From contig JACRMQ010000006.1 of assembly GCA_016214905.1 (NCBI GenBank), forward strand, positions 321,008 to 385,007: a stretch of 64,000 bases of DNA, given 5' to 3'. Below are positions 12,689 to 53,720 of the stretch, piece by piece. This DNA is from Ignavibacteriales bacterium. Its GTDB lineage: Bacteria; Bacteroidota; Ignavibacteria; UBA10030; SZUA-254. The translations under genes and the position numbers were made by a program. Under the pieces are notes generated by a model that was given only the letters and a program-made list of their open reading frames with translations, ran no database searches and was not told where the DNA came from. The stretch's first letter is position 1, and every line of letters starts with the position of its first letter.

Positions 12689-12715
12689 CCAGCTTCATTA
12701 TCTCATAAACATAAC

Positions 12716-19997: not shown

Positions 19998-20000
19998 TCA

Positions 20001-20588
20001 ATGCAAAAGGAAAAAATCAAAATTAAAAAATTATATCTTCTCAATCCTTTCGCCACATTGTTTGTTGTGTTAATTCTAATTTCTTTCATTATTTATGGTT
20101 GCGAATCAAAAGTTAAACCACCTATCACACCAGTTGGATTAGGTTATGATGTACCAAGTCAGGAAAGCTGGAACGCGAATATAACATTCACAGATTCCGG
20201 GAAGGTGACGGGGAAACTGCGCGCAGGTCATATCCGTATGTACTCCGATAGAAAAACCACAGAACTCGATTCATTGGTCATTGTCGACTTTTTCGATGAT
20301 CAACAACACCATACATCAATCTTGACCGCAGAGCGGGGAACCGTGAACGATATTACGCATGACTTCGAGGTCCATGAAGATGTTGTGGTTAAATCCGATA
20401 GTGGAACGGTGCTTCGAACCGAACATCTGTATTGGTCTAACACTACACAAAAAGTTCATACTAACGCGTATGTTGAGATTACCTCACCTACCGAACAGAT
20501 ACAGGGACACGGTTTCGAATCAGATAAGAGTTTAAAGCATTACACAATTTTTAAAGTAACCGGCAAAGCCAAGACGAATGAAAAATAA
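20001..20588 (+). CDS. lptC: LptC-like LPS export periplasmic protein
   Basis: 195 aa with a single N-terminal TM anchor followed by an LptC/OstA-fold-like region. Its position between kdsD and lptA matches the conserved operon order. Confidence 0.55.
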   Translation: MQKEKIKIKKLYLLNPFATLFVVLILISFIIYGCESKVKPPITPVGLGYDVPSQESWNANITFTDSGKVTGKLRAGHIRMYSDRKTTELDSLVIVDFFDDQQHHTSILTAERGTVNDITHDFEVHEDVVVKSDSGTVLRTEHLYWSNTTQKVHTNAYVEITSPTEQIQGHGFESDKSLKHYTIFKVTGKAKTNEK

Positions 20589-21825
20589 TATTTCTCCGTT
20601 TTTTATCATCACCATAATTTTAAGTTTCTTCGCTCATGTTCGATCGCAGGAAAAAGACAGCGTTGTGGTTATTGAACATGCCGATAGTCTGGTGGGAACA
20701 GAGATCAATGGAGAGAAAGCCCGTCAACTTATCGGCAATGTAAAATTGAGACACGGTTCAACTGTTGTAACATGCGACCGCGCAATTCAATATTTATCGT
20801 CGAACAAATTTGAGATGGAAGGGGTTGTTCAGATAAAAGATGATACGATGCGGCTTGTTGGGATGCGCGGCGCGTATTATCAGAAGGAGAAAGTCGGAGA
20901 GATGTTTGATCGGGTATTGCTTGAAGATCCTACAACACATTTGCAGGCATCGTATGGTAAATATTTTGCAGAAGAAAAGAAAGCATATTTCAGGGGAAAC
21001 GTTTATGTTGAAGATACTTCTTCTGTTTTAACATCGGATGAGCTTACATATTATCGTTCGGCTGAAAAATCTGTTGCGGATGGGAATGTAAAAATTAACA
21101 ATCGACGAAACCGTTTAACGATATTCGGAACTCATTTCGAGAATGATAAGAAAAGACAATACAGCAAGATGACCGGAAATCCGCGACTGATTCAGATCGA
21201 CACAACATCGAAAGGCGAAACCGATACACTGATTGTAACCGCATCAACGCTCGAATCGTATCAGGACAGCGTTGAGCGGCTTATCGCCACCGATAGCGTT
21301 CGTATCACTCGCGGCACTGTTTCGGGCGAGGCAGGATTGACGCTATATTTTACAGAAGCCGATAGTATTTTCATGACAAGAGCACCCTGCATTTGGTATG
21401 AAACCGGAAAGAATGAAGACAACCAGATTACAGGCGAGTCGATATTTCTGAAGTTAAAGAAGAGGAAATTAGAGACGGCGTATGTGCGCGGAAGGGCAGT
21501 GGCAATCTCCCGTGCCGATACCGTTTATACCGAAAGATTTAATCAAATGACCGGGCAGGAAATTATTCTTCGGTTCGTCGATGATAAAGTGAATCGAATC
21601 AATGTTATCACAACAGCCACAAGTTTGTATTATCTTTTCGATAACGGTAAACCAAACGGGATGAATGTAACAACGGGAGATGAAATCATTGTGCTCTTTA
21701 AAGAAGGTAAGATAGATAAGATAAAAGCATTATCCGGTGTCGAAGGGAAATATTATCCGGAGAAAATGATCAAAGGAAATGAAGCAGACTACAACCTGCC
21801 AGAATTCAATTGGAAAAAGAAATGA
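20578..21825 (+). CDS. lptA: LptA/OstA-N-like periplasmic protein (duplicated OstA_N fold)
   Basis: 415 aa with signal peptide. OstA-N-like beta-jellyroll segments occur twice. It sits in the lptC-lptA-lptB position. Confidence 0.55.
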   Translation: MKNNISPFFIITIILSFFAHVRSQEKDSVVVIEHADSLVGTEINGEKARQLIGNVKLRHGSTVVTCDRAIQYLSSNKFEMEGVVQIKDDTMRLVGMRGAYYQKEKVGEMFDRVLLEDPTTHLQASYGKYFAEEKKAYFRGNVYVEDTSSVLTSDELTYYRSAEKSVADGNVKINNRRNRLTIFGTHFENDKKRQYSKMTGNPRLIQIDTTSKGETDTLIVTASTLESYQDSVERLIATDSVRITRGTVSGEAGLTLYFTEADSIFMTRAPCIWYETGKNEDNQITGESIFLKLKKRKLETAYVRGRAVAISRADTVYTERFNQMTGQEIILRFVDDKVNRINVITTATSLYYLFDNGKPNGMNVTTGDEIIVLFKEGKIDKIKALSGVEGKYYPEKMIKGNEADYNLPEFNWKKK

Positions 21826-21875
21826 ATTCTCCCGATATTTTTAACATCGTGAAATAAACTGTATATTATCCGATA

Positions 21876-22664
21876 ATGAATCAGCAAATTGAAAATACTC
21901 CCGAAACTCAACCACGAGACGTTATGAACGGAAGCGTCTTGCGATCCGAGGGGCTTTTCAAACGTTACAAGAAACGGTACGTTGTTAATAATGTAAATGT
22001 TGAAGTGCGTCAGGGTGAAGTGGTGGGCTTGCTTGGTCCCAATGGCGCGGGGAAAACTACAACATTCTATATGATCGTCGGGATGATAAAGCCGACAGAT
22101 GGAAAAGTGTTTTACAACGGTTCAGAGATTACATCGGAGCCGATGTACAAGCGCGCGAGAATGGGTATTGGATATCTTTCGCAGGAAGCATCGGTCTTCA
22201 GAAAATTATCGGTGCAGGATAATATCACTGCCGTGCTCGAGTTAATGGGTATCGGTAAGAAAGAACGGGAAGAAAGATGTCAGCAACTGATTGACGATTT
22301 TGGATTGAACAATATTGCCAAAAGCAAAGGTTATATGTTATCGGGCGGAGAGAGGCGCAGGACCGAAATTGCACGCGCTCTGGCAACAAAACCGAAATTT
22401 ATTTTGTTAGACGAACCATTTGCCGGTATCGATCCGATAGCAGTTGAAGATATTATGCGCATCGTTCAGGGTTTGAAGAACCGCGGCATCGGAGTTCTCG
22501 TCACCGATCATAATGTTCACGAAACGCTTTCAATAACCGACCGCTCGTATTTGTTATTCGAGGGAAAGATAATAAAATCAGGATCGGCAGAAACACTTGC
22601 CAACGATCCCGAAGCGCGGAGATTGTATCTGGGCGAAAAGTTTAAGCTTGATAGGTACGAATAA
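21876..22664 (+). CDS. lptB: LPS export ABC transporter ATP-binding protein
   Basis: 262 aa. Walker [13 protein letters not shown] signature LSGGERRR, Walker [12 protein letters not shown]. Confidence 0.8.
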
Positions 22665-28880: not shown

Positions 28881-31424
28881 TTACATTTTGGTCGCGACAA
28901 CAAGGGGCGATTTCACATTCGAAAGTGTGCTACCAAAACTATCTAATGCTTCCAGGAGAACAATATAAATCCCAATGCGGACTCTATTTTTGTTGTCATT
29001 ATATCCGTTCCAGATGATATCTCCCCGCGAACCGCTTGGTTCATTTTCAGCGAGTGTCCGCACCAACCTTCCGGTCAAATCGTAAATTCTCACTCGAATC
29101 GTCGCTGTTGATGAATGTAATTCATAATGAATTATTGTTACATCCTCGTATCCATCACCGTCGGGTGAGAAAGGATTGGGAGTGAAAGAAATTGAACTGT
29201 TATCCGGGACAGTGACCGTAAATAAACTATTTTGAAATGAAGGCGATCCGCCTAAAGAGTTTGCGCTTGTACTCCAGTTTCTTCGATCGTGGCTTGAAAG
29301 ATTTGGATTGATTCTCTCTAACGATCTACCTTCAACATCTTCGATATCGGAGTTGTGCCACCAGGGGAAATAATGAACACTGTCGATTATTTCTCCGGTC
29401 AAATCTGAAAGAATAATTTCGTCACCGTCATTATTCAAGCTTAAGCATCCATCTTTAATAATCACGTTATAATTTGAATCTCGAAGATAAGAGAATCGAT
29501 TGTAGATCGATGAATCAAAAGCGATTACTAAAAATTCTCCGCTACCGATGACGAACGACGAATTACTAATGACATATTTGCTCGATGAATTTGTGTCTTT
29601 AAAATCTGTTAGTCTCCATTCAGAAAGATCAACGAGGTCGGTTCCGTTATTAAAAAGCTCAACATATTCAGCATCGCCGGTTTTCGGTTGGTACATGATT
29701 TCATTAATAGCGATGACGTTCTTTCCGAAGCGATTCTTTATCTCGAAAAAGATCGTATTATCAGTCAGTCTCATATCGAGAGGGTAATCGATAATGGATA
29801 TGAGAATCTTTTTACCGGGAGGTAGATTATTCCATGTAAAATCGATCGCCAAGGAATCTTTAAAAATCAATGGTGAAATTATTTGATGTGATGAGATTAG
29901 TTCTGAGGCATCGGCAATCGAATCGCCATTCGAATCGAAGTAAAGGGAGACGGAAAAATTCTGAGCTATTTGATGCCCGGCATTCCGAACAACGACTCTG
30001 ATTGTCGTCGTATCAATGGCGTACGCATTCACGATGCAAAGATCGTATTCTAAAGGAGTAAGATAGTTTTGAAGACCGGGAGTACTGCCAACTGAATCTT
30101 TCGATGATCCCCAATTTGTGGAATCAGTAGATCCAACCTCGGGTTCGATTCTCTCTAAAGAATTCCCTACTGAATCGTTCCAGGATGGGAAATAATAAAC
30201 GCTATCCATTATCGCCCCCCGGTCATCAAAAAGAACTACTGCATCACCCGTATTATTTAAAAAATATGTCGGTAACGAATTGATTTGCAAAGTTGTTGCA
30301 GAAATATCCGGATGAACTGCAGCGAATAAATTTAGGTCCTTCGTCAAAACGCAGTAAGCGTTCGGAGGGATCTGAATATTTTGATTCGTGATAAGATGTT
30401 TCGTTGATGAGTATCGGTTGCTGATCTTCCAACCATTCAAATCAACCGTATCCGAATAATTATTATACAACTCCACCCATTCCGGCCCAGGACTATCAGG
30501 AGCGAACATTATTTCATTCACTACGACGGAGGATGGTGGTATACCGACGGATAAAGTATATTTCTTAAGATTATTGGAAAGATTCTGATCTCCAGTTAGA
30601 ATCGCATTGATAAATATCCATTCTTTTCCAAACAAGGGTTGAATTAAGATGGCTTGAACTGCTGTTGTTTCAGCGGGTTGAAGTAATTTTTGGGTTGATG
30701 CCGATGAAAATACTTCATCTGGTTGAGGGAGCGAGTCGTGATTTTTATCTTCATAGAAATCGACCGAAATATTTTGCACCGGTTGTAAACCGGAATTTTT
30801 CAAAATTGCCTGAACGACTACGGAATCTCCAATAATCGGAAAAGTGGGAAAGATGTTTATGTAGTCAATAGATATATCCGTGTTGTATAACGCAGTTATC
30901 AGTACATCGTCAAAACGAATTGTACCGGATGTGCCGGTTCCATTGCCGATAACTCGCCATCGAAATTTTATATTGCTTTGATTATTTAGTGAAGGAGAGA
31001 GTCTAAATTTTCTAAGGACGTACGATGTTGTTCCGGGATTTTTCAATGTATCGCTAATCGGGATATCGAATGTTATTCCTCCGTTAGTGGATGCTTCGAT
31101 CAATAAACCGGAATTATGGCTGCTCGATCTTCGCTCGTAAAATTTTAGACTGTCGGCCTCTTTGTTTGAAAAATCGATCAAAGGCGAGATCAACGCTTGG
31201 CTTATGGTGGAGTTTGTGCTAATCGCCGCGTTTGAATCGGAATAAGGAGATGATTTTGTCGTTATGAAATCTCCTGTTACTGATTTATTCGTTGTTGTTG
31301 TCCATTGAATTGGCAGAACAGGCGGTGTAACAGAATCGAAATTTTGAAGATAAGGAAATTGACTGATTTGTCCTTTTAACTCAGAACAAAAAAGAGTTAG
31401 AAACAAAAATATAGAATATCGCAT
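28881..31424 (-). CDS. Secreted protein with two lamin-tail domains (LTD) and a type-B-like (CHU_C/FlgD-Ig-like) T9SS C-terminal domain
   Basis: 847 aa with signal peptide MRYSIFLFLTLFCSELKGQ. The LTD signatures are VVNEIMFAPDSPGPEWVELYNNYSDTVDLNGWKISN and INEIMYQPKTGDAEYVELFNNGTDLVDLSEWRLTD. The C-terminal FTPNPFSPDGDGYEDVTIIHYEL…IRIYDLTGRLVRTL is the gliding-motility-type C-terminal domain. Confidence 0.7.
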   Translation of the reverse strand: MRYSIFLFLTLFCSELKGQISQFPYLQNFDSVTPPVLPIQWTTTTNKSVTGDFITTKSSPYSDSNAAISTNSTISQALISPLIDFSNKEADSLKFYERRSSSHNSGLLIEASTNGGITFDIPISDTLKNPGTTSYVLRKFRLSPSLNNQSNIKFRWRVIGNGTGTSGTIRFDDVLITALYNTDISIDYINIFPTFPIIGDSVVVQAILKNSGLQPVQNISVDFYEDKNHDSLPQPDEVFSSASTQKLLQPAETTAVQAILIQPLFGKEWIFINAILTGDQNLSNNLKKYTLSVGIPPSSVVVNEIMFAPDSPGPEWVELYNNYSDTVDLNGWKISNRYSSTKHLITNQNIQIPPNAYCVLTKDLNLFAAVHPDISATTLQINSLPTYFLNNTGDAVVLFDDRGAIMDSVYYFPSWNDSVGNSLERIEPEVGSTDSTNWGSSKDSVGSTPGLQNYLTPLEYDLCIVNAYAIDTTTIRVVVRNAGHQIAQNFSVSLYFDSNGDSIADASELISSHQIISPLIFKDSLAIDFTWNNLPPGKKILISIIDYPLDMRLTDNTIFFEIKNRFGKNVIAINEIMYQPKTGDAEYVELFNNGTDLVDLSEWRLTDFKDTNSSSKYVISNSSFVIGSGEFLVIAFDSSIYNRFSYLRDSNYNVIIKDGCLSLNNDGDEIILSDLTGEIIDSVHYFPWWHNSDIEDVEGRSLERINPNLSSHDRRNWSTSANSLGGSPSFQNSLFTVTVPDNSSISFTPNPFSPDGDGYEDVTIIHYELHSSTATIRVRIYDLTGRLVRTLAENEPSGSRGDIIWNGYNDNKNRVRIGIYIVLLEALDSFGSTLSNVKSPLVVATKM

Positions 31425-33657: not shown

Positions 33658-34248
33658 TCAAATTCTTTTGCGTTTAATTGTATATCTGCTCTTAGGTTCT
33701 TCAACTATAAATCCAATTTGACGTTTTGGTTTTTCTGGCGGAGTCATCAATTGCCGAATTGCTTCAAAGACCGATTTAATTTGTATGTCGTGTGTTTCAA
33801 ACTTTCGCTCAAGTTCTTCGAGCTTATGTGCTAAGTCTTTGTGAGTTGCAAGGATCTGTCTTAACTTTACGAATGCCCTCATGATAGCAATGTTGACTTG
33901 GATAGCTCTTTCACTGTTTAAAACAGTCGAAAGCATCGCTACGCCTTGTTCAGTAAAAGCAAGTGGAAGATAACGTCTCCCACCGCTGCCAGATTTTGAG
34001 GTCGCAATTTGCGACCTCAAAAATATATATTCTTCTGGTGTAAGTTGGAACATAAAATCTTCGGGGAATCGACTAATGTTCCTTCTAACTTGTTCATTAA
34101 GCCGTTTAGTAGATACACCGTACAGCAACGCGAGGTGAGAATCTAACATTGCCTTTTGCCCACGGATCAAGAAGATTTGCTGTTCGATTCTTTCAATTGG
34201 TATCAGTGTTGTAGAACTCATTAGCTTCTCCTCCAGATACAATATCAA
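33658..34248 (-). CDS. ORF6N (KilA-N-related) domain protein
   Basis: 196 aa. IERIEQQIFLIRGQKAMLDSHLALLYGVSTKRLNEQVRRNISRFPEDFMFQLTPEE matches the ORF6N/antirepressor-type DNA-binding domain. A coiled-coil C-terminus follows. Confidence 0.6.
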   Translation of the reverse strand: MILYLEEKLMSSTTLIPIERIEQQIFLIRGQKAMLDSHLALLYGVSTKRLNEQVRRNISRFPEDFMFQLTPEEYIFLRSQIATSKSGSGGRRYLPLAFTEQGVAMLSTVLNSERAIQVNIAIMRAFVKLRQILATHKDLAHKLEELERKFETHDIQIKSVFEAIRQLMTPPEKPKRQIGFIVEEPKSRYTIKRKRI

Positions 34249-34288: not shown

Positions 34289-35524
34289 TCATTTTTTACT
34301 CTTCTCTACCCACACCTGCACAAGGTTTACAACTGTTTCAATCGATTTCTCCATACCGTCAAGTGAAGCCCACTCGGTTTTGCCGTGGAAGTTTTTTCCT
34401 CCTGTGAAAATATTCGGACAGGGGAGGCCCATTGCTGTAAGCCGTGAGCCGTCTGTGCCACCGCGGATTGGAACCCATTTTGGTTCAAGCCCGGAGCGCT
34501 TTGTTGCTTCCCATAAATATTCAGTTACACGCGGGTCTTTATCAACACCTTCACGCATATTGCGATACGATTCTTTTATCTCCAACTCTATTCTGGTTTT
34601 AGGATGAAGTGGTTTCACTTCTTCGATTATCTTTTCTAATATCTTTTTCTGTTTATCCAATCCTTCGGTCTTAAAATCCCGGAATAGGAAATTGAGAGTT
34701 GTTTTTTCTTCTTCACCTTTTAAAATGTGCGGATGGATATATGGCTCGTAACCTTCAGTTGTTTCAGGTGCCATATCTTTCGGTGTTCGAATTATGATGT
34801 CTGCCATTGTTCTAATCGAATTCACCATAATATTTTTTGCAAAACCGGGATGTATGTTTCTTCCGTGCACGGTTATGGTCGCAGAGTTTGCGCTGAAGGT
34901 TTCCTTGTTTAATTCTCCGGCAGTGTCGCCATCAACTGTGTATGCGAAGTCAGCGCCGAAAGATTTTAAATCGAAAAATTTTGTCCCTGCTCCAATCTCT
35001 TCATCAGGTGTGAATCCAATTTTAATATCACCGTGAGGAATTTTGGGATTATTGAGGAGTTGCTGAACTGCCGTCATTATGATTGCAATACCTGCTTTGT
35101 TATCTGCACCCAGCAGAGTTGTACCATCAGATGTGATTATTGTTTTACCGATGCAATGTTTCAATTCAGGATTTTCAGCTTCAGTGATTACAATTGACTT
35201 GTCACCGGGCAATACAACATCTCCGCCTTGATACTTAATCACCTGTGGTTTTACATTTTCACCGCTTGCAGATGGTGATGTATCTACATGTGCGATGAAT
35301 CCGATAGCCGGAACTTTATGCGGTACATTTGAAGGCACTGTTCCCATAACATATCCGTATTTATCTATCCGTGCATCTTTCAGACCTAAAGTTTTCAATT
35401 CTTCAACAAGCAGATTTAAAAGATTTAGTTGTTTGGAAGTGCTCGGATACGATTCAGATTCTTCGCTGGATTGTGTATCTATCTTGACATATCGAAGAAA
35501 TTTATCGAGGACTGTTTCGTTCAT
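34289..35524 (-). CDS. pepT: Peptidase T (tripeptide aminopeptidase, M20B)
   Basis: 411 aa. The N-terminus LLDKFLRYVKIDTQS and M20 metal ligands (HVDT, GADNKAG, DEEIG) are present. Confidence 0.8.
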   Translation of the reverse strand: MNETVLDKFLRYVKIDTQSSEESESYPSTSKQLNLLNLLVEELKTLGLKDARIDKYGYVMGTVPSNVPHKVPAIGFIAHVDTSPSASGENVKPQVIKYQGGDVVLPGDKSIVITEAENPELKHCIGKTIITSDGTTLLGADNKAGIAIIMTAVQQLLNNPKIPHGDIKIGFTPDEEIGAGTKFFDLKSFGADFAYTVDGDTAGELNKETFSANSATITVHGRNIHPGFAKNIMVNSIRTMADIIIRTPKDMAPETTEGYEPYIHPHILKGEEEKTTLNFLFRDFKTEGLDKQKKILEKIIEEVKPLHPKTRIELEIKESYRNMREGVDKDPRVTEYLWEATKRSGLEPKWVPIRGGTDGSRLTAMGLPCPNIFTGGKNFHGKTEWASLDGMEKSIETVVNLVQVWVEKSKK

Positions 35525-35812
35525 AATATTATCTTTCTATAAATGTTGTCATCAAACAGGAATAATTAATGATTGGCATTTTATGAATTTTCAAAGTTAG
35601 AAGCAAATAGGATAAGATATCCATAATTGGAGATTGTTTTCCCGGATGATACATATCACTTCCGGTCCTTTAAGAAATAGGTATTTTAGTTCCAATTCAT
35701 TAACTTTGATGAAATTCAATACTTGTTTAGAGGATGGAATTTTTGTATTTTCATTCGATTTTATTGATTGGTTGCCCGATATTCGATTTATTTTTGATAC
35801 AAAAGAAAGTAT

Positions 35813-37027
35813 ATGATTAAAACAGATAAAAAAACGTCAAAATATATCATTATTTTTCACTTATTATTAGCTGTAAGTATTTATCAGCATCAGGCGATAG
35901 CTCAAGTTCCTACCGATTCATTGGCGATACTGGTTAATGAAGGTTACGCCATAATGCAAAGCAATCCCGATAGGGCAGAGCAGTTATTCGAACAGGCACT
36001 GACGATTTCACCTAATGATTTAGCATTACGCAGACAGCTTGGATATCTCTACAGCGATAATAATAAACCTGAGCGAGCGTTAAAAGAATTTGAAAAAGCG
36101 GAAGCCATACAATCATCCGATACTATTAAATTACAGATGGCATTTATCCAACTAACCAACGGCCATGAAGACAAAGCGGTAACAATCTTGCGTGAGCTAA
36201 CGGAGAGTCAAGATCTGTTTATTAAAAAGAGTGCTGATGAGCAGTTGGCTGCGATTACTTCTGCCTCTGTGACGGTAATTCCAGATGAACCAAGCAGATG
36301 GTATTCCCGTATTTATGCAGCACCTTTTTATGATACACGCTGGGAAACAATATTCTATAACTTCGATGCGGAGCGTGGATATTATTTCAATTCCAAGAGG
36401 ACAATTTTTGGTTACGGATTTTTATCTCTGGCGGCGGACGGAAAATCGAAGCTTGGCGAAGTACCCGAGATATTTTCCGATAACGCAATTGTGGGCGGAG
36501 TTGGTATAGGCGTAAAACCGTTAACAGGATTAGAATTAAGAACTCAATTAGGGATTGCATATGATATAATACAGCAGGATAGCGGAGTGTCGCGCTGGAG
36601 TGAAGATTTTAGGGTACTGGCAATATATGGAAATGGAATCTATCCGGATTTTGAATTTCATACCGATCCGAAAGTTACATTAGAACCGTTGTTAGATGTC
36701 TATTCATCGGTCGGTTATTATTCCCGTTATAAAAATGTCATCGGCTATCTTCAGGGTAGGGCCGGTGTGCGAATTTTTGAAATGTCTTATACTGCCGCCG
36801 ATTTATATTTAAGGTCTATGTATGTAAAAGATTCGGAACGGGAATTTTATAATAATCAAATAGATGCCGCGATCGGTTTACGTATTCTGCCGTTTTATAA
36901 ATGGGATTTATACGTGATGGCAGAATATTATCGGGGCACATATTTAGGGAATATTGCCCGTCCCTCAGATTTCTCAAAATATTTCGGCGGTTTTCGTCTC
37001 TTTATTATTTATGATCATATCTTTTAA
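35813..37027 (+). CDS. Outer-membrane protein: periplasmic TPR repeats + C-terminal beta-barrel (small PgaA/NfrA/BcsC-like exporter)
   Basis: 404 aa with a signal peptide. ~4 TPR repeats span roughly aa 40-160. The C-terminal 240 aa are rich in alternating aromatic/hydrophobic beta-strands and end in …FRLFIIYDHIF, the C-terminal Phe signature of OMP barrels. The downstream synthase begins 4 nt after this gene's stop. Confidence 0.55.
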   Translation: MIKTDKKTSKYIIIFHLLLAVSIYQHQAIAQVPTDSLAILVNEGYAIMQSNPDRAEQLFEQALTISPNDLALRRQLGYLYSDNNKPERALKEFEKAEAIQSSDTIKLQMAFIQLTNGHEDKAVTILRELTESQDLFIKKSADEQLAAITSASVTVIPDEPSRWYSRIYAAPFYDTRWETIFYNFDAERGYYFNSKRTIFGYGFLSLAADGKSKLGEVPEIFSDNAIVGGVGIGVKPLTGLELRTQLGIAYDIIQQDSGVSRWSEDFRVLAIYGNGIYPDFEFHTDPKVTLEPLLDVYSSVGYYSRYKNVIGYLQGRAGVRIFEMSYTAADLYLRSMYVKDSEREFYNNQIDAAIGLRILPFYKWDLYVMAEYYRGTYLGNIARPSDFSKYFGGFRLFIIYDHIF

Positions 37028-37030
37028 TAT

Positions 37031-38437
37031 ATGGGCGATTGGCTAGTACAAATATTCAGGTCGTCGTACGATTCTTTGTACATGGCAACATTTATTGTTG
37101 CCACATTCCTTTTCATCAGTGGTTTCGATGATATTTTTGTAGATCTATATTATTGGTTCCATCACTGGTTGATGAAAAAGAAATTCAATAAATTTCGGTA
37201 CGAAACCCCGGAAAAACTTTATCAATTAGAAGAAAAAACAATCGCGATCTTCGTGCCTGCATGGCACGAGCAAGATGTTATTGATAAAATGTTGTTGAAT
37301 GCATGCCGAACAATTCAATATAAGAATTACGATATTTTTGTGGGAGTTTATCCGAACGATCCCGGAACAATATCAAGAGTTGAATTGGTAAGCAAGCAAT
37401 ATCCGAATGTTCATGCGGTAGTGGCTGATAAACCTGGGCCAACAACAAAAGCGGATAATTTGAATGGTATTCATGCCGGAATGATAAAGTGGGAAAACAA
37501 AACCGGCGTAAGATATGATATCATTGTCATGCACGATTCTGAAGATGTCATTCATCCTCTATCATTGAAAATTCATAATGCGCTTATTCCGGAATATGAT
37601 ATGGTGCAGATGCCTGTATTTCCGCTGGATACTAGTCATTTGAATCTTGTTCACTGGACCTATGCCGATGAATTTGCAGAATACCATACCAAAGATTTAT
37701 TTGTTCGACAGCATTTCAGCGGATTTGTTCCCTCGGCCGGTGTTGGCACTGCATTCAATAGGTGGATTATCGAATTTGTTGGTACCTCGTTCGCGAAGAA
37801 CATTTTCCGTACGAGCGCTCTTACTGAAGATTATGATCTCGCGTTGCGACTCGCGCTTGGGCGGGCGAATCTTTTATTTACATATAAACCATTCGGTATC
37901 GATTGTGCTACCCGCGGATATTTCCCACATTCAATGAGCGCTTCAATAAGACAGAAAAGCAGGTGGATTACCGGTATATGCCTGCAATCATGGCAAACAA
38001 TCGGTTGGCGGGGAGATGCAAAATTCAGATTTGTTCTTTATCGTGATAGAAAAGCGGTAATTGCGAATATAATTAATTTCTTCGCTTACATTGTAATTCT
38101 ATATTTAATATCTTACGAAGCGATACGTTTAGGTTTTGCGGCATATCGACAACTGCCACCTATTGTTACTAAAGGAACAATATTGTGGGACCTTGTGGTC
38201 ATCGATAGTCTATTGATGATCTGGCGAATTATGCATCGGTTTGTTACTGTACGACGCGTATATGGAATCTGGGCGGCAATATTAAGTATTTTCAGATTGC
38301 CGATTTCAAATATTATTAATTTCAGCGCAACAGGCAGAGCGTTATATCAATTTACAAAAGCAGCCTTGAGGAAGAAAGAGCTTAAGTGGGAAAAGACAGC
38401 GCACCACTTCCCAACTGCGACAGAACATAGTTCTTAA
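37031..38437 (+). CDS. Processive family-2 glycosyltransferase (NfrB/PgaC/cellulose-synthase-like polysaccharide synthase)
   Basis: 468 aa. An N-terminal TM helix precedes a GT2 domain carrying the D, DxD-like (HDSEDV) and TED (LTEDYD) motifs and QxxRW (IRQKSRWITG). There are ≥3 C-terminal TM helices. Confidence 0.7.
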   Translation: MGDWLVQIFRSSYDSLYMATFIVATFLFISGFDDIFVDLYYWFHHWLMKKKFNKFRYETPEKLYQLEEKTIAIFVPAWHEQDVIDKMLLNACRTIQYKNYDIFVGVYPNDPGTISRVELVSKQYPNVHAVVADKPGPTTKADNLNGIHAGMIKWENKTGVRYDIIVMHDSEDVIHPLSLKIHNALIPEYDMVQMPVFPLDTSHLNLVHWTYADEFAEYHTKDLFVRQHFSGFVPSAGVGTAFNRWIIEFVGTSFAKNIFRTSALTEDYDLALRLALGRANLLFTYKPFGIDCATRGYFPHSMSASIRQKSRWITGICLQSWQTIGWRGDAKFRFVLYRDRKAVIANIINFFAYIVILYLISYEAIRLGFAAYRQLPPIVTKGTILWDLVVIDSLLMIWRIMHRFVTVRRVYGIWAAILSIFRLPISNIINFSATGRALYQFTKAALRKKELKWEKTAHHFPTATEHSS

Positions 38438-38454
38438 AACTAAAAAATGAATTA

Positions 38455-38844
38455 ATGAAAACAAACTTGAGGGATTTGATGGTCAAGAATTATTCTATCT
38501 TATATGTTGATGACGAAGATCAATTACGGTTTTTAGTGCAGAATCAATTAAGTCAGGAAGGTTTTAATGTCGACACCGCAGACGATGGTGATACGGCCTT
38601 AGATATGATGAAACAAAAGTCGTATGATGTTGTGTTACTAGATATCAGGATGCCGCGGTTGAACGGACTTGAAGTATTGAAGGAAATGAAAAAGCGGAAA
38701 ACGAACGCTCGGGCGATAATGCTTACAGGTGTGGATGATCTTGCCGTTGCCCTTGAAGCTGTTAAAAGCGGTGCGATTGATTATCTGACCAAACCTTACG
38801 AGTTGGATAATCTTATGAGATCGATTATGCGCGTTATTGGTTAG
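38455..38844 (+). CDS. Stand-alone response-regulator receiver (CheY-like REC) protein
   Basis: 129 aa. The acid pocket YVDDE, phospho-acceptor VLLDIRMP, T (MLTG) and K (YLTKP) are all present. There is no output domain. Confidence 0.8.
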   Translation: MKTNLRDLMVKNYSILYVDDEDQLRFLVQNQLSQEGFNVDTADDGDTALDMMKQKSYDVVLLDIRMPRLNGLEVLKEMKKRKTNARAIMLTGVDDLAVALEAVKSGAIDYLTKPYELDNLMRSIMRVIG

Positions 38845-38930: not shown

Positions 38931-39034
38931 GGGGTCAAGTCCTGCGCAACAAGAAATTTCCGAACCCCGCCAGGTCCGGAAGGAAGCAACGGTAGGAAGT
39001 AAATCTTGTGTGACGTAGGGTAGCTTGACCTCTT
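38931..39034 (+). ncRNA. ffs: Signal recognition particle RNA (4.5S-type, small bacterial SRP RNA)
   Basis: Contains the near-universal domain IV motif CCAGGUCCGGAAGGAAGCAACGGUAG. The 5' GGGGUCAAGU pairs with the 3' GCUUGACCUC to form the closing helix, and the RNA ends in a U-run. Length is ~104 nt. Confidence 0.75.
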
Positions 39035-39040
39035 TTAATT

Positions 39041-40240
39041 TTATTCCAACCATGAAATAATCTCAAACGATCCTGTCATCGGGTAACTTGGCGGAGAGTT
39101 AACTAATAATCGGTTATCGTATTTATAATTTTTCTGAAATCCATGATTGATTGTTGTGCCGCTGTAAGTCCCCACCGGTCCACGTTGATATTGCGTTACC
39201 CCGCCATAAAGGTACAAAGTTCCACTAACAGGTCGAGTGTTATAGTTCTCTGCCGTCAAACCGCCTTTCAAACAAAAAATTGCTGCATCAATCCTACAAT
39301 CGCTGTTATTGGCAGCATTATCTGTTACAAATACGTTATTTTCACTGACGAGTCCCAACATATCATCAGATGCACCTGCTCTTGGATCTGCTTTACAGCG
39401 GACATCGTTATCAATATAAATATTCCCAAATCCCAATCCAGAACTAGCCGTAGCACAGACTGTTGCTCTACCGTCGATAGTACCTTGAACGTGAATATTT
39501 CCTTTCGCTGCTAATATAACACCATTCGGGGCAAATGAAGACAACGGCTCGGTAGTTACCGTACCGGTAGCAGATGTTTTCCATTTAACGTTTCCATCTT
39601 CAAATGTCAGCCATAAATCACCGGTTGCAAAAACCCGGCCTCCTGCTGTTGCAGCCGCCACTACGCCATTAATATTCGCGGGCAGGTCTAAATCAACCCC
39701 TTTCTGATAACCACCATAAAATTTTGCTTTACTCTTTGTGGGATTTGTTCCTAACCGAGTTGTAACTTTCCCATAGAAAACAGGAGAATTAGGTGTGGGA
39801 ATATTTAATTTGGCTTGTGAATGGAGGGGTCCCCAAACTGTATCCTTAGATATCCAATCGATTGCACCTTCGATTTTAGAATAATAAGCGAATTTAGAAT
39901 ATGAGCTCGGTTGAAGCAAAACTCTCACCGTCTCGGCTGAATCGGTGTACGTTCCGATTGCTTCAATTTTTTTCATCTTTGTAAGTGTATCGCGTACGGT
40001 AACACTGAATTTACCCCCTGAGAAAGAAATATTTGAATACCCCGCTCTCCATGAGGTGTCTATGAATAATTTATTTGCAGCGATATTCGCGGCACTCGTA
40101 GCAATGTTATGAGCTTGAGATTTTTTTTGATAACTGAGATAGTTTTCCACCGCACGGTTTGCCTGCCGATGTAAGTTAGGTGTCACAATTCCAAGTATTA
40201 AACTGAAACCTAACACGAGTAATATAGATGCTCTGCCCAT
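39041..40240 (-). CDS. PilX-N-like membrane-anchored protein (putative type IV pilus minor component / tip-associated)
   Basis: 399 aa. An N-terminal hydrophobic anchor (MGRASILLVLGFSLILGIVTPNLHRQANRAVENY) resembles PilX_N. It is followed by a beta-rich, Gly/Thr-rich region. It is the last gene of a three-gene overlapping operon. Confidence 0.4.
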   Translation of the reverse strand: MGRASILLVLGFSLILGIVTPNLHRQANRAVENYLSYQKKSQAHNIATSAANIAANKLFIDTSWRAGYSNISFSGGKFSVTVRDTLTKMKKIEAIGTYTDSAETVRVLLQPSSYSKFAYYSKIEGAIDWISKDTVWGPLHSQAKLNIPTPNSPVFYGKVTTRLGTNPTKSKAKFYGGYQKGVDLDLPANINGVVAAATAGGRVFATGDLWLTFEDGNVKWKTSATGTVTTEPLSSFAPNGVILAAKGNIHVQGTIDGRATVCATASSGLGFGNIYIDNDVRCKADPRAGASDDMLGLVSENNVFVTDNAANNSDCRIDAAIFCLKGGLTAENYNTRPVSGTLYLYGGVTQYQRGPVGTYSGTTINHGFQKNYKYDNRLLVNSPPSYPMTGSFEIISWLE

Positions 40241-40251
40241 ATAAATTTTCC

Positions 40252-40878
40252 TTATCTGTTTTTAAGATTTCTTGCTGCAAGACGCAACTGCCGCCAGAAC
40301 GCAAATGAATATGTAGTATCGTACGCGTAAGGACTTTCCAGCAATACGGAAAGTTGAATCTCATAGATTGCATTCGGATTACTAATCGGAAAAGGCAATG
40401 AATCACCCTGTGCATCGAAGTAAACGAAATCGAATTTTGTGACGCCCAAACTTATACCGCTTCCTCTTCGATTATTGATGTCGCGGAATAGATACATGTC
40501 TCTGGGATTCGGAGTACCGGTTAACCCTGATATCGTCCCGATTGAATATTCCAGAGTGTCAACATTTCCGACATTCAATAAATCGGTTTGAAATTTAATA
40601 TTATGCCTGCCCGCACCAAGAATTGCTTTGGATGGATCAGGAACTTTAGTGTATTCCCTGCAGTATCCTATTCTTCTAAAATCATCTTCAATCATGCGTA
40701 CTAGTGATACTAAATTTTCCTGGACAGTGAGATCGTTCGTGGTGGTATAATTGGAGTAAACTAACGAACTGTTCATGTGTATTACCATCAACAGCAGAAA
40801 TCCGGCGATGATGATGGATGATAATATGTCTAATATCGTACTTGAACCCATAACTTTGCTCCTTACCTGAAATACCAA
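40252..40878 (-). CDS. PilW-like minor pilin-like protein
   Basis: 208 aa. An N-terminal TM helix is followed by QENLVSLVRMIEDDFRRIGY, matching the conserved PilW/GspJ block E.AR.A…L..D.R.AGY. Confidence 0.45.
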   Translation of the reverse strand: MVFQVRSKVMGSSTILDILSSIIIAGFLLLMVIHMNSSLVYSNYTTTNDLTVQENLVSLVRMIEDDFRRIGYCREYTKVPDPSKAILGAGRHNIKFQTDLLNVGNVDTLEYSIGTISGLTGTPNPRDMYLFRDINNRRGSGISLGVTKFDFVYFDAQGDSLPFPISNPNAIYEIQLSVLLESPYAYDTTYSFAFWRQLRLAARNLKNR

Positions 40879-41363
40879 TAACTGAAGATATATTCGGCGC
40901 TCACTGTATCTTTCATTTGCGGACTCGTCACCTGAACGCTTAGTTTTTTATGCCATGTAGGAGATGCTTGCGCAACATTTGGATTCAACGGATCGATATA
41001 AAATACACGGCAAGATATGTTGAACATTCCACTTAAAGTGTCTGGAGTAACTGTTCTTCGTAGATTGTTGAAGTCATCAAAGTCATTCAATGAATCCGGA
41101 TAATATTCACCGGTCTCAAGTCCTAATTGCGCTACAGGAGTTAGCTGAGAGGTCGCAGTAGCAATATCTTCATCTGTATTTTTATCGAATGATTTTCCCT
41201 GCGCCTCTTCAACAAGTGAGGAAGCGATTGATATCGCTGTTACACCTAATTTTGCCTGAATAACAATCTCATTGCTGTTCCCTAAGCTGCGGTTCATGGA
41301 AACTACAACAGTTCCAAGAAGCGCTAAGGCAAACAAAGCAAATATTGTTTGTCCGGTGTTCAT
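40863..41363 (-). CDS. PilV-like minor pilin-like protein
   Basis: 166 aa. An N-terminal hydrophobic helix (MNTGQTIFALFALALLGTVVVSMNR) precedes a small beta-rich domain. It overlaps the next gene by 16 nt. The canonical G|FTLIE prepilin motif is absent. Confidence 0.4.
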   Translation of the reverse strand: MNTGQTIFALFALALLGTVVVSMNRSLGNSNEIVIQAKLGVTAISIASSLVEEAQGKSFDKNTDEDIATATSQLTPVAQLGLETGEYYPDSLNDFDDFNNLRRTVTPDTLSGMFNISCRVFYIDPLNPNVAQASPTWHKKLSVQVTSPQMKDTVSAEYIFSYWYFR

Positions 41364-41990
41364 ATTAACCCCTTAATAAGTTTTCTGCAATTATTTTTTA
41401 ATCAACGGATGTGATTGAGGCCAGATCTGATGCAATTCCGGCATTAAAATGTACCTTTGCCGGATTTGCCGCTTCTGTTAATCAGACTGCAAGATATTTT
41501 AATCCGATTTGCCGGCGTTCTAATTCCTACCGATTAATCAGGACCAATATTTTCATTTGGTAAAATAATCAATGCACATGCTGGCATATCACTAAATCAC
41601 ATGGACATGATAAAATAAATTACGAGAAGACGCAATAGTAAGAGTGAGAACAATCACTTCCGGATAGAGGAAATAACTCCAAACAGTCGGATTATCAAAA
41701 AAGATGAATTCTTGCAAAGATGTTAAAAAATTAGTAACTTTAAAAAACAAATACCGAATAATTTCAAAATTTCGGATAATACATAGATAAATTAAATTTA
41801 AAATCATTCGCAACAAGTCACTGGTTAACGATGTCGAGCGTCTTTTTATTACGAGTTTTCATTTTAAGCACAAACCGTTTCCTCGCTTCGTTCCACGACT
41901 TCGCCGCGGCACTGATCCGTGTGCGTAGTTGCATATTCAATAATTATTCAGACCCTAATGGGCTGGTAGCAGAAAATATTATGTCTATAA

Positions 41991-43652
41991 GTGGGTCGGA
42001 GGAACAAAGTGTCAAACGTAAGAAAAGAAATTATAATCAACGCAACTGCGAACGAGATTCGCATTGCTATCACCGAGGATAAGCGTTTAGCAGAACTCTT
42101 CGTTGAAACTCCTGAAAAGGAGCGTATGGTAGGCGATATATATTTAGGCCGTGTGGCTAAGGTAATGCCTGGCATCCGTGCTGCATTTATTGATCTTGGA
42201 TTAAAGCAAGATGCCTTTCTACATTTTTCAGATATTGGAAGTTCGTTCTCTGAATATTCATCGTTAGTGGGCGATGAAGATTCCGATGTGGATGTTGATG
42301 AAGATGGAGACGATACCGAAAATCCTTTAAGCGAAAACGGTTCGACTCCAACAACGGAACTTAAAAACCAACCACAATCGCAACAGCGACAACGACCCCA
42401 AAGGAACGATAATTATCAAAAATCTTTACCGGACATCAAGCGCGGTCAGGATATATTAGTACAAGTTACAAAAGAACCGGTTGGTCGCAAGGGTGTTAGA
42501 GTAACATCGGAAGTCTCCATACCCGGCAGATTTTTAGTGCTATTGCCTTTCGATGGGAAGATTGGTGTTTCAAAACGGATGCAGAGCTTCAAGGAAAAAC
42601 GCCGGTTGCGCAGAATCGTTCGCAATTTTCTCCCTGAAGGATTTGGTGCGATCATCCGTACTGTTGCTATGGATCAGGATGAAGCGGCATTAAAAGCGGA
42701 TATGGATAATCTTCTTTCAACATGGAGGGAGATAGAGAAAAGCGTTAAATCGGAGGAACCGCCTTCACTTCTTTACAAAGACATGGCAACGACTTCCAGT
42801 GTTATCCGTGATTTATTTTCTGAATCTGTTGACCGGATAGTAATAGATTCGAAAAAATTGTATAAAGAAATCCGCGCGTACGTTAAAACAGTCTCTCCGG
42901 ATTGGATCGATAAGATTGAGTTATACAAAGACAAAGAGCCGATCTTCGATGTTTATGGAATAGAAAAAGAAATCGCAACCGTGCTAAGTAGAAAAGTATG
43001 GTTGAAGAGCGGTGGATATATAATTATCGAACAAACCGAGGCGATGGTTGTTGTCGACGTGAATAGCGGTCGTTACGCGGCGAAACGCGAACAAGAATTG
43101 AATTCACTCCGTACTAATCTCGAATCGGCAAGGGAGATATGCCGTCAGCTTAGATTGAGAGATCTTGGGGGAATTATCGTAATCGATTTCATCGATCTGG
43201 ATGATGAGAAGAATCGAAAAAAAGTATACGATGAATTGCGTAAAGAATTTAAACGCGATCGTGCAAAAGTTACCGTCTTGCCGATGACTGAAATCGGATT
43301 AGTTCAAATCACCCGGCAAAGGATCCGACAAAATATCCTCCATAGTTTCAGCGAACCCTGCCCTGTTTGCGGCGGCGGCGGTCTAATTGAATCTAAATCG
43401 AGCATTGTAAATCATATCGAGAGATGGGTACGCAGATTCAAATCAGAATCGCGTGAATACCGACTTAGACTCGCGGTACACCCAACAGTCGCTCAATACC
43501 TGAGAGAAGGCACAATAAGTAGGATTACGAAGATGAAATTCAAATATTTTGTTTCAATCAAACTTACAGAAGACACATCAACTCAGGCATCAGAGTTCCA
43601 TTTCTTTTCCCTAAAGCAAAATAAAGATATTACTGAGCAATTTATTTCATGA
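41991..43652 (+). CDS. rng: Ribonuclease E/G family endoribonuclease (RNase G-like, with acidic insert)
   Basis: 553 aa with a GTG start. The S1 domain block KEIIINATANEIRIAITEDKRLAELFVE…GDIYLGRVAKVMPGIRAAFIDLG is present. Also found are the DNase-I-like/Mg site IIEQTEAMVVVDVNSG and a Zn-link-like CPVCGGGG. A 40-aa acidic insert reads DEDSDVDVDEDGDD. Confidence 0.8.
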   Translation: MGRRNKVSNVRKEIIINATANEIRIAITEDKRLAELFVETPEKERMVGDIYLGRVAKVMPGIRAAFIDLGLKQDAFLHFSDIGSSFSEYSSLVGDEDSDVDVDEDGDDTENPLSENGSTPTTELKNQPQSQQRQRPQRNDNYQKSLPDIKRGQDILVQVTKEPVGRKGVRVTSEVSIPGRFLVLLPFDGKIGVSKRMQSFKEKRRLRRIVRNFLPEGFGAIIRTVAMDQDEAALKADMDNLLSTWREIEKSVKSEEPPSLLYKDMATTSSVIRDLFSESVDRIVIDSKKLYKEIRAYVKTVSPDWIDKIELYKDKEPIFDVYGIEKEIATVLSRKVWLKSGGYIIIEQTEAMVVVDVNSGRYAAKREQELNSLRTNLESAREICRQLRLRDLGGIIVIDFIDLDDEKNRKKVYDELRKEFKRDRAKVTVLPMTEIGLVQITRQRIRQNILHSFSEPCPVCGGGGLIESKSSIVNHIERWVRRFKSESREYRLRLAVHPTVAQYLREGTISRITKMKFKYFVSIKLTEDTSTQASEFHFFSLKQNKDITEQFIS

Positions 43653-53250: not shown

Positions 53251-53720
53251 GATTATGCCCAAAACGATCTGTTTTTGAACAAAGCGATTTTAATCCCTCA
53301 AAATTATGCAATAATTGAGGATGTTAAAAAATGATTGATTTAGGGGGTAATGAAAAACGATGGGAGAAACAAAAGGATTTAAGACCCTCCGAGAAATAAT
53401 AATAAGAAGTTGAGTAGAAAGGCGAAACATAGCTTGACAATAACCGACCAGTTTTGTAATTTGCATAACACGATTTTGATGGGTTGAAACAAGGGAACTT
53501 ACGCTTATGGATTTGGTGGATAGAGAGAATGAATGTTTGTAGTGCGTGAGTATGATGATGAGCTTTTCGAGAAAAGATAAATATAAAACACCTGATGAAA
53601 AATATATGTTACTTAAATCCGATAAATAATGGATAATCTAAAAAAAATAAAAACGCAATATTGCGAAATTACAGATGTTCCGCAGCCATTTGTTCACGAC
53701 TGATAGCGCGAGAAAAATCG

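Follow-up and report, generated by a model that had tools for sequence, protein, structure and literature searches.

A candidate minimal NfrB-type polysaccharide secretion locus in Ignavibacteria, with a conserved stand-alone receiver as the proposed switch of its synthase

The known post-translational control of the cellulose, PNAG, Pel, alginate and Nfr polysaccharide machines runs through c-di-GMP. In the 64-kb stretch of Ignavibacteriales DNA analysed here (the window), an NfrB-like GT2 synthase is encoded between a candidate outer-membrane exporter and a stand-alone receiver (REC) of the response regulator type, which raises the question of whether a synthase of this kind may be switched by phosphorylation instead. 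The three genes span positions 35813-38844, all on the + strand (Table 1), and, as judged from sequence, all three ORFs are real genes and not chance ORFs. Protein searches recovered 3633 homologues of the synthase (E<=1e-10), 72 of the outer-membrane protein (OMP; E<=1e-3) and 203 of the receiver (E<=1e-10). The tight three-gene spacing described in the initial annotation stands, with two corrections: the OMP and synthase genes are separated by 3 nt (TAA-tat-ATG) and not 4 nt, while the 17-nt gap given for the second junction applies to the longest receiver ORF only. As the 41 receiver orthologues begin at the equivalent of Met9 (38479), with GAGGGA just before it, this is probably the real receiver start, from which the gap to the synthase gene is 41 nt.

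Table 1. Position of the three genes and of the region upstream of them, numbered as in the window
Feature	Coordinates	Strand	Details
Divergent intergenic region, pepT (- strand)/operon	35525-35812		288 nt; probable operon promoter
Outer-membrane exporter candidate	35813-37027	+	404 aa ORF
NfrB-family GT2 synthase, short form	37031-38437	+	468 aa ORF
Stand-alone CheY-like receiver	38479-38844	+	121 aa; longest ORF 38455-38844 = 129 aa

Alignment of the upstream region with four orthologous loci revealed conserved blocks at ~35573-35610 and ~35722-35770. A sigma-70 scan of this region performed no better than on shuffled sequence, and a sigma-54 promoter at the conserved TGGCAT block (~35575) was rejected on inspection by eye, the -12 GC being missing. 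Internal terminator candidates were restricted to weak ones with 5-bp stems within coding sequence and were likewise rejected. A strong hairpin on the - strand (38981-38958) forms part of an SRP RNA; this SRP RNA was the sole Rfam match in the whole window at the gathering threshold.

The synthase belongs, in its core, to the NfrB family. It matches the Pfam Glyco_tranf_2_3 domain (2.3e-36), scores above the cut-off of the NCBIfam model NF011305 (PRK14716 group; 440.6 bits, cut-off 409) and shares 36% amino acid identity with E. coli NfrB (BLASTP; residues 3-464 against 2-481, E 7e-102). The model built for E. coli NfrB (NF008411) is covered at positions 10-477 of 723, with a score of 411.6 against a cut-off of 1170. 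Pfam detected no MshEN domain, the C-terminus coinciding with the start of the NfrB linker and MshEN, and the protein is not an E. coli-type, MshEN-bearing NfrB. The motifs N109-D110, D169-x-E171-D172, T265-E266-D267 and Q308-x-x-R311-W312 (QKSRW, aa 308-312) are invariant in 53 homologues. Residues D169, D267 and W312 align with D169, D267 and W330 of NfrB, which are required for its function in E. coli (PMC8669469). The N-terminal TM helix (aa 19-37) is followed by a GT-A domain (~aa 60-300) and by a C-terminal membrane part with two TM helices and an interface helix (aa 342-431; hydrophobic segments 342-360, 378-401 and 411-431), so that ~3 TM helices plus interface helices are present. The cytosolic tail carries a conserved W453-x-K455-T456...P461 motif, which is kept in short forms, long forms and E. 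coli NfrB, and residues 243-289 form a conserved patch specific to the clade. The best fold matches of the AF2 model (pLDDT 88, pTM 0.85) were BcsA (Foldseek, 1.6e-13) and hyaluronan synthase (1e-11), with the archaeal mannosyltransferase PcManGT, a minimal fold, also among the structural matches; a PDB sequence search with the synthase gave no match. The initial reading of this protein as a processive PgaC/NfrB-like GT2 with D/DxD/TED/QxxRW motifs and TM helices at both ends is borne out by these data, and in structural comparison the model falls among the processive synthases (BcsA, hyaluronan synthases), away from single-addition enzymes.

The third gene encodes a Response_reg domain (Pfam, 1.8e-31; residues 15-124 of 129), which ends a few residues before the C-terminus and is followed by no output domain. 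In the 129-aa numbering, its phospho-acceptor pocket comprises the acidic pair D19/D20, the acceptor D63, T91 and K113-P114. Of these residues, D20, D63, T91, K113 and P114 show conservation of at least 95% over 41 orthologues; the window protein also has D19. The annotation as a CheY-like receiver with an intact pocket is thereby upheld. An Arg-rich extension is a feature of c-di-GMP-binding CheY-like proteins, and the receiver does not possess one. Orthologues that likewise stand alone make up at least 120 clusters, and nearly all of those among the matches listed are 119-127 aa in length.

The association of synthase and receiver was evaluated across 80 related genomic loci, with linkage counted only where the downstream DNA was readable. 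In every readable short-synthase locus of the Ignavibacteria clade, a REC gene lies directly downstream of the synthase gene on the same strand, at a distance of -4 to 144 nt. The REC-linked synthases are monophyletic in a NJ tree, with synthase identity falling to 51%, and the gaps in the divergent branch are -4 to 5 nt. The pair is retained where the OMP gene is missing (loci L043 and L061), as well as where the flanking pepT, SRP RNA and rng are missing. In relatives from other phyla, MshEN or HEAT domains are fused to the synthase and no REC gene lies alongside; among the long-form representatives (n=68), Pfam identified MshEN in 40/68, HEAT repeats in 5/68 and REC in 0/68. The earlier suggestion that the gating module has been replaced by the receiver thus finds comparative support, in that REC-linked synthases are without a C-terminal domain and the relatives with MshEN or HEAT are without REC. 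However, other lineages contain short NfrB-like synthases that have no receiver next to them, so that the loss of MshEN alone does not imply receiver control. Furthermore, the linkage traces to a single ancestral event, and the loci, though many, therefore do not count as independent. No synthase-REC fusion was found among the top 150 family representatives (50% clustering) or the 68 long forms; with no REC in the former, a physical interaction is not backed by a fusion protein. An origin of the receiver by fission of a C-terminal domain was rejected, as the REC query had no match to long-form synthases, including those of the sister loci L067 and L075. Systems of this kind are found widely among Ignavibacteria of groundwater, sediment and bioreactor origin.

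The mechanism proposed on this basis begins with the inner-membrane synthase, which by homology would polymerise a UDP-sugar in the cytoplasm and translocate the chain across the inner membrane. As the protein has only ~3 TM helices and YbcH is absent, oligomers or partners encoded elsewhere may be required for this step. The lineage appears to have lost the MshEN c-di-GMP sensor that in most NfrB relatives is fused behind the last membrane segment, and to co-express a single-domain response regulator instead. The latter would probably be phosphorylated at D63 by an unlinked histidine kinase, after which it would probably bind to the synthase on its cytosolic face, thereby turning polymerisation on or off post-translationally. 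The closest mechanistic analogue is found in Myxococcus xanthus, where the single-domain response regulator EpsW~P activates the polysaccharide enzyme EpsZ by direct binding (PMC12802240); a regulator of this type there acts post-translationally on an initiating or polymerising enzyme. The two cases differ in several respects. As a phosphoglycosyl transferase, EpsZ works in a Wzx/Wzy pathway, whereas the Ignavibacteria enzyme is a GT2 synthase, and there is no sequence relationship beyond the REC fold. The kinase of EpsW is known (DifE) and the EpsW-EpsZ interaction is experimentally supported, whereas the Ignavibacteria pair is known from its genes and we infer the contact between its members. 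Within the literature library that was searched, no paper connects NfrB with a response regulator. Direct gating of the synthase by the receiver is well motivated, and its chance is placed a little below even.

Alternatively, the receiver may be linked to the polysaccharide system only indirectly and not bind the synthase, serving a two-component or chemosensory pathway as a phosphate sink, phosphorelay intermediate or connector; polymer production might in this way be coordinated with motility or pili. This would agree with a stand-alone REC that has neither an output domain nor an adjacent kinase, single-domain regulators often being sinks or relays, for example DifD in Myxococcus (PMC12802240), and with the pilin-like cluster that adjoins the module in its closest relatives. 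The cluster is, however, present in only 5 loci, and a linked relay partner (Hpt or kinase) is missing: no histidine kinase (HisKA or HATPase_c) occurs among the window ORFs of at least 120 aa, nor is one conserved in 46 flanking regions. The tight, sometimes overlapping synthase-REC junctions throughout the clade point rather to co-translation in matched amounts, and an indirect role is considered unlikely, though less so than the other alternatives.

There is a small chance that the receiver is an unrelated gene kept in place by conservation of gene order, in which case the short synthase would be active constitutively or controlled through transcription only. Many loci also preserve the surrounding order of pepT, module, SRP RNA and rng (pepT 23/41; rng 23/41), and, as noted, short NfrB-like synthases elsewhere do without a REC. 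Against this, the adjacency of synthase and REC outlasts every other neighbour, the OMP gene included, the two genes share a strand and, in the divergent branch, lie as close as -4 to 5 nt, and the REC is present in the same clade that is without the C-terminal sensor domain.

Equally improbable in our estimation is that c-di-GMP control persists through an unlinked MshEN or PilZ protein, with the receiver as a second input or acting upstream of a diguanylate cyclase. Control by c-di-GMP is the rule in synthase-dependent systems and may involve receptors that are separate subunits, such as PelD and Alg44 (PMC12802240). The WxKT...P tail common to short forms, long forms and E. coli NfrB would also be in keeping with such retention. 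However, the 64-kb window contains no GGDEF, EAL, PilZ or MshEN gene, none is conserved in the flanking regions, and neither the three proteins nor those encoded beside them have a c-di-GMP receptor domain (PilZ, MshEN, degenerate GGDEF I-site or PgaCD interface). Rfam searches of 35450-35900 revealed no riboswitch or RNA leader, including c-di-GMP riboswitches, even at E<=1. The receiver moreover lacks the Arg-rich extension mentioned above.

The product of the first gene, the candidate exporter, combines a Sec signal peptide (aa 1-30, AIA/Q site), periplasmic TPRs, a C-terminal barrel and a terminal aromatic residue (...YDHIF, terminal Phe) with a gene position next to the synthase, as in exporters of the NfrA/PgaA/BcsC type. 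The TPRs are matched by Pfam at residues 46-131 (TPR_19, 1.2e-10). In the AF2 model, seven TPR-type helices (~3.5 TPRs; aa 36-152, nt 35918-36268) precede a barrel of 12 long strands (aa 163-404, nt 36299-37024), the mean pLDDT being 86.9 and that of the barrel mostly above 90. Both the TPR repeats and the Phe-terminated C-terminal barrel of the initial annotation are thus recovered, the latter as a confident prediction. The best PDB match by Foldseek is to BcsC over the full length (9b8a, E 2.4e-8), and the barrel matches the 12-stranded barrels of BrkA, EspP, NanC and FapF. The description of the protein as a miniature NfrA, on the other hand, has to be given up. The barrels of NfrA, PgaA and BcsC consist of 16 strands, and neither NfrA_C nor PgaA/BcsC porin homology accompanies the 12 strands of the model. 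NfrA_C (PF13283) gave no Pfam match at E<=0.1, E. coli NfrA itself scoring 9.7e-68; hhalign aligned the TPRs only (35% probability), and barrel homology to NfrA was rejected. The PgaA and BcsC NCBIfam models match the TPR region alone, far under their cut-offs, and a PDB sequence search returned TPR matches only. To our knowledge, every polysaccharide exporter barrel characterised so far is larger than one of 12 strands.

An OMP homologue is encoded upstream of the synthase in 41 loci, with a 3-nt gap or a 4-nt overlap between the two, and members of the same OMP family, as near whole-query matches, lie upstream of long-form NfrB-like synthases in Legionella, Elusimicrobia and an unclassified contig. 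That no free exopolysaccharide is made, the GT2 producing a short, lipid-linked or periplasmic glycan and the OMP serving as a Slam-like translocon or small substrate channel, would accord with the 12 strands and their likeness to autotransporter, NanC and FapF barrels, a weak TPR_Slam match (Pfam, E 0.02), the PcManGT match and the few TM helices available for a channel, but is very improbable given the invariant QxxRW and TED motifs, the processive synthases as best fold matches, a core orthologous to NfrB, for which a secreted EPS product has been reported (PMC8669469), the recurrence of the TPR-barrel and synthase linkage in several phyla, and BcsC as the best full-length structural match. 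The synthase and OMP are probably a polysaccharide synthesis and export pair, in which the OMP, from its fold and linkage, would take the chain in the periplasm and pass it through the outer membrane.

Comparison with characterised systems places the locus closest to the Nfr machinery of E. coli, where NfrB, NfrA and YbcH constitute the N4 glycan receptor/Nfr exopolysaccharide system (PMC8669469, PMC8669472). The two share full-length homology of the GT2 core, identical catalytic residues (D169/D267/QxxRW), an N-terminal TM helix followed by C-terminal TM helices, the WxKT..FP tail motif, a TPR-β-barrel partner encoded next door and a synthase-dependent logic. They differ in that E. coli NfrB has an MshEN c-di-GMP domain, at the junction to which the Ignavibacteria synthase stops, in gene order (OMP then synthase here, nfrB then nfrA in E. 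coli) and in the third gene, which is YbcH/DUF4434 in nfrBA-ybcH and a stand-alone receiver here. Furthermore, the 404 aa OMP has 12 predicted strands and no NfrA_C, whereas NfrA has 990 aa and 16 strands (PMC8669472). Linkage to WecB is also not seen: WecB/Epimerase_2 is absent from the 64-kb window and not conserved in the flanks, though a WecB gene may be located at another site of the 793-kb contig, and no other sugar-nucleotide enzymes lie near the operon. ManNAc as the substrate is suggested by analogy with E. coli only. The PgaABCD and BcsABZC systems similarly pair a processive inner-membrane GT2 with QxxRW with a TPR/C-terminal barrel exporter, and BcsA and BcsC are the best structural matches of the synthase and OMP, respectively. 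The present module, however, is without a PilZ domain, PgaD, BcsB or PgaB, the OMP resembles PgaA and BcsC in sequence only along its TPRs, with 12 strands against 16, and the proposed regulator is a phospho-receiver and not c-di-GMP. No PgaB-, BcsB- or YbcH-like genes are found within the 64-kb window, as had been stated at the outset for a PgaB-type deacetylase and a BcsB-type subunit. Another compact NfrB-type module without MshEN and with a small TPR/barrel partner is encoded at locus L084 (WecB, a 476-aa synthase and a 347-aa NfrA_C protein), where the short form arose independently (NJ tree). There the OMP matches NfrA_C and an epimerase is linked, neither of which applies to the Ignavibacteria module. 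No receiver gene is visible at L084, but the contig breaks off shortly downstream.

Taken as a whole, the locus stands at about an even chance of being a three-gene operon for a minimal NfrB-type synthase-dependent polysaccharide secretion system, with the receiver as the proposed switch of the synthase. A broader reading is put forward tentatively: a class-level lineage of Ignavibacteria may possess an NfrB-type machine gated by a dedicated phosphorylated receiver that replaces c-di-GMP, with the smallest known TPR-barrel polysaccharide exporter (12 strands, 404 aa), and with the synthase patch 243-289 and the universal WxKT tail as docking and gating elements. If true, synthase-dependent pathways would gain their first described example of a two-component switch acting after translation. 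The combination of an MshEN-less synthase and a phosphorylatable receiver suggests that the regulatory socket of these enzymes takes varied sensors, including MshEN, HEAT repeats and a separate receiver, and with just three genes the locus is a compact model in which to test how a GT2 synthase is opened by a cytosolic regulator. Should the 12-stranded TPR-barrel protein really export the polymer, the lower bound on the size of polysaccharide exporters would have to be moved down. In Ignavibacteria, the system could add to the biofilm matrix or serve as a phage receptor, like the NfrB product in E. coli.

The three genes that the initial annotation had grouped as a linked module at 35813-38844 are confirmed as plus-strand open reading frames (ORFs), coding for a TPR/β-barrel outer-membrane protein (OMP), an NfrB-family GT2 synthase (GT) and a receiver (REC). 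In this uncultured member of the Ignavibacteriales, each product is 100% identical to an NCBI entry from a metagenome-assembled genome (MAG), all three located on one 793-kb contig, where OMP is called 'tetratricopeptide repeat protein', GT 'phage adsorption protein NrfB' and REC 'response regulator'; the products are already annotated in public records. The gap between the first two genes, given initially as 4 nt, is 3 nt (TAA-tat-ATG). Since all REC orthologues start at the position corresponding to Met9 (38479), behind a GAGGGA motif, the true REC product is probably 121 aa in length, with a GT-REC gap of 41 nt. No convincing terminator was found between the three genes, while a sigma-70 scan scored no better than on shuffled sequence. 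A terminator-like hairpin on the minus strand (38981-38958) was rejected as a terminator and belongs to the SRP RNA. Two conserved blocks shared by the five closest loci lie in the spacer between pepT and the operon, at 35573-35610 (TGGCATTTTATGAATTTTCA...AGAAGCAAATA) and 35722-35770 (ACTTGTTT...TTTTGTATTTTCATTC). They are probably promoter or operator elements, with a sigma-54 promoter rejected on the basis of their spacing.

Coordinates of the module and its flanking features
Feature	Position	Strand	Description
pepT	34289-35524	-	divergent from the OMP-GT-REC operon, 288-nt spacer between
OMP gene	35813-37027	+	ORF, 404 aa
GT gene	37031-38437	+	ORF, 468 aa
REC gene	38455-38844	+	longest ORF, 129 aa
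SRP RNA gene (bacterial small SRP, 4.5S-type)	38933-39033	+	RF00169, 75 bits; 88 nt 3' of REC gene
rng (RNase E/G gene)	41991-43652

Several further features surround the module. Three minus-strand ORFs of 399, 208 and 166 aa (39041-41363) encode proteins whose hydrophobic N-termini resemble those of prepilins and which match nothing in Pfam. Confined to the five closest loci (L001-L004 and L012), these ORFs have the appearance of an insertion separating the SRP RNA gene from rng, and may represent minor-pilin or pseudopilin genes. A spurious plus-strand ORF of about 100 aa (41831-42082), overlapping the upstream region of rng and showing 'protein'-level conservation in twelve loci, probably reflects a conserved leader of rng that does not code for protein; no Rfam family was matched. 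Between an OPT transporter gene and pepT, an ORF6N-domain protein (1.4e-33) is encoded on the minus strand (33658-34248); this domain is characteristic of regulators from phages and mobile elements. Elsewhere in the window (5904-14344, 28881-31424 and 53661-54938), the C-terminal sorting domains of type IX secretion (Por_Secre_tail or CHU_C) occur in several large secreted proteins, which also contain BNR, He_PIG, lamin-tail or sortilin-type repeats. The 788-aa ORF at 9735-12101 has no Pfam match.

The GT protein matches Glyco_tranf_2_3 in Pfam (2.3e-36) and scores 440.6 bits against NCBIfam NF011305 (PRK14716 'NfrB-like' group), above the curated cutoff of 409. Residues 3-464 align with residues 2-481 of E. 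coli K-12 NfrB (36% identity; E 7e-102), with the alignment ending where the linker and MshEN domain of NfrB begin, and only positions 10-477 of the 723 in the E. coli NfrB model are covered, at a score far under the model cutoff. The core sequence thus places GT in the NfrB family, while MshEN, the defining feature of E. coli-type NfrB, is missing. Across 53 homologues, no variation occurs at N109-D110, D169/E171/D172, E266-D267 and Q308/R311/W312, and D169, D267 and W312 align with D169, D267 and W330 of NfrB, mutants of which abolish phage N4 plating complementation in E. coli (PMC8669469). The closest structural match to the AlphaFold model (pLDDT 88, pTM 0.85) is BcsA (E 1.6e-13), followed by the hyaluronan synthases of a Chlorella virus and Xenopus and plant CesA. 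These results bear out the initial description of an NfrB-like processive GT2 and, because GT groups with processive synthases, the concern that it might belong with single-addition enzymes falls away. Hydropathy and the model place one transmembrane helix at the N-terminus and, beyond the QxxRW helix, two transmembrane helices and an amphipathic helix ahead of a cytosolic tail, in keeping with the predicted helices at both ends. The tail includes a motif, W453-x-K455-T456...P461, that is conserved in REC-linked and other NfrB-like GTs, including that of E. coli.

The OMP incorporates a signal peptide (cut AIA|Q31) and TPRs recognised by Pfam, and terminates in ...YDHIF. Its AlphaFold model, built from 54 homologues (pLDDT 86.9), pairs seven TPR-type helices (residues 36-152) with twelve long β-strands (163-403), the best Foldseek match in the PDB being E. 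coli BcsC (E 2.4e-8), which likewise combines TPRs and a barrel. Since the barrel by itself matches the 12-stranded barrels of BrkA, EspP, Hbp, NanC, FapF and a COG4313 channel, the barrel prediction for the C-terminal half holds. The proposal of a miniature PgaA/BcsC/NfrA therefore stands in terms of architecture but not of barrel type: the barrels of NfrA, PgaA and BcsC have 16 strands (PMC8669472), and OMP falls outside these families. NfrA_C gave no match in OMP (E. coli NfrA control, 9.7e-68), and in a profile comparison with NfrA the TPRs alone align (probability 35%). The OMP family is small, comprising 72 clusters found almost exclusively in Ignavibacteria-type MAGs. Near-full-length relatives are encoded directly 5' of long NfrB-like synthases in Legionella massiliensis, in a MAG of the Elusimicrobia and on one other contig; the pairing of this OMP family with NfrB-type synthases therefore predates the Ignavibacteria. 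A plus-strand run at 17682-22664 (DAHP_synth_1, HAD hydrolase, SIS+CBS, LptC, OstA/LptA and ABC ATPase) reads, on gene order, as a putative kdsA-kdsC-kdsD-lptC-lptA-lptB set, indicating a diderm organism with LPS, which fits an outer-membrane exporter.

The REC protein is a plain receiver domain (1.8e-31) lacking an output domain, as first described. Its phospho-acceptor residues D20, D63, T91 and K113-P114 are retained in 95% or more of 41 orthologues, and D19 is also present; the family is thus predicted to comprise phosphorylatable receivers rather than pseudo-receivers. Stand-alone orthologues form at least 120 clusters, nearly all of 119-127 aa, and many share a contig with GT and OMP.

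Using one genome per species, 521 loci encoding a GT relative were identified, of which the best 80 were analysed. Among these, all loci with at least 51% GT identity belong to Ignavibacteria-type MAGs, several recorded as 'Chlorobiaceae' or 'Bacteroidota', and encode a short GT (about 467-483 aa) followed, wherever downstream DNA is present, by a same-strand REC (4-nt overlap to 144 nt), while the OMP gene lies 5' of GT with a 3-nt gap or 4-nt overlap. As pepT and rng flank the module in just 23 of the 41 loci, and the SRP RNA is restricted to the closer tier of loci (it lies behind the module in L001, L005, L009, L013 and L018 and not in more divergent loci), the GT-REC linkage outlasts general gene-order conservation. 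On the most divergent branch (L043 and L061), the OMP gene and usual flanks are gone, yet GT and REC remain 3 nt apart. These two loci (L043, 5791-7764) derive from GC-rich divergent Ignavibacteria, with a CorA-like gene upstream on the other strand; no TPR-barrel gene adjoins GT-REC, so the exporter gene is either at another site or missing.

Relatives with at most 47% identity, found in Chloroflexota, Eremiobacterota, Acidobacteriota, Elusimicrobia and Proteobacteria, are mostly long (630-980 aa), and among the best 80 loci none has a REC gene at its 3' side. Their extensions are MshEN or, in Chloroflexota, HEAT repeats; among 68 long-form representatives from a library of 1.8 billion proteins, 40 carry MshEN, five HEAT and none REC. 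In the Anaerolineae and Chloroflexota GTs of L046-L063, C-terminal HEAT repeats (GT residues ~540-620) replace MshEN, with no TPR-barrel gene adjacent; they give the NfrB family a third kind of regulatory or partner module, as yet uncharacterised. A neighbour-joining tree unites all REC-linked GTs in a single clade, sister to the Legionella and Elusimicrobia long forms. Other short GTs (L082-L085 and L069) are of independent origin, with no adjacent REC. In the metagenomic contig L084 (1875-5492), a WecB-type epimerase, a 476-aa short NfrB-like GT and a 347-aa TPR/NfrA_C protein are encoded in one overlapping operon, a true 'mini-NfrA' system with a linked ManNAc-precursor enzyme.

GT and OMP most likely work together as a minimal pair for synthase-dependent polysaccharide secretion, of NfrB descent. 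Several caveats apply. The synthase has few transmembrane helices and the barrel is unusually small. No YbcH, BcsB or PgaB equivalent was found in the 64-kb window, matching the reported lack of a PgaB-type deacetylase and BcsB-type subunit, and no sugar-nucleotide enzyme is encoded near the module. The ManNAc polymer of E. coli is itself proposed rather than chemically shown (PMC8669469, PMC8669472).

Direct gating of GT by REC is a tentative reading, at just under an even chance, in which REC would take over the role of the MshEN sensor. This would fit the point where GT ends, the close and long-preserved linkage within the operon, the presence of a complete phospho-site and the activation of EpsZ by EpsW~P in Myxococcus (PMC12802240). 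It would also fit the coincidence of sensor-domain absence and REC presence in a single clade. The initial suggestion that a receiver replaces the gating module is thus strengthened by the comparative evidence, though unproven, while the short GTs lacking a receiver elsewhere count against it. Apart from these short forms and the type of barrel, the initial interpretation is right wherever it can be checked. Also against direct gating, the linkage amounts to effectively one evolutionary event, and no GT-REC fusion was found among the top 150 representatives or the 68 long forms, nor any histidine kinase linked to the module. Thirty-three positions set the REC-linked clade apart, being invariant within it and different in other GTs; 21 of them lie within GT residues 243-289, in the cytosolic GT domain around its least confidently modelled loop. 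This patch and the universal WxKT tail are candidates for a REC-GT interface; the patch may just as well stem from a difference in sugar specificity.

The published survey placed NfrB homologues mainly in Proteobacteria and found the MshEN domain conserved in most of them (PMC8669469), and no paper linking NfrB to a response regulator was found in the literature searched. With REC as the putative regulator of GT, this compact module is a system in which control of a synthase-dependent pathway by something other than c-di-GMP can be tested.
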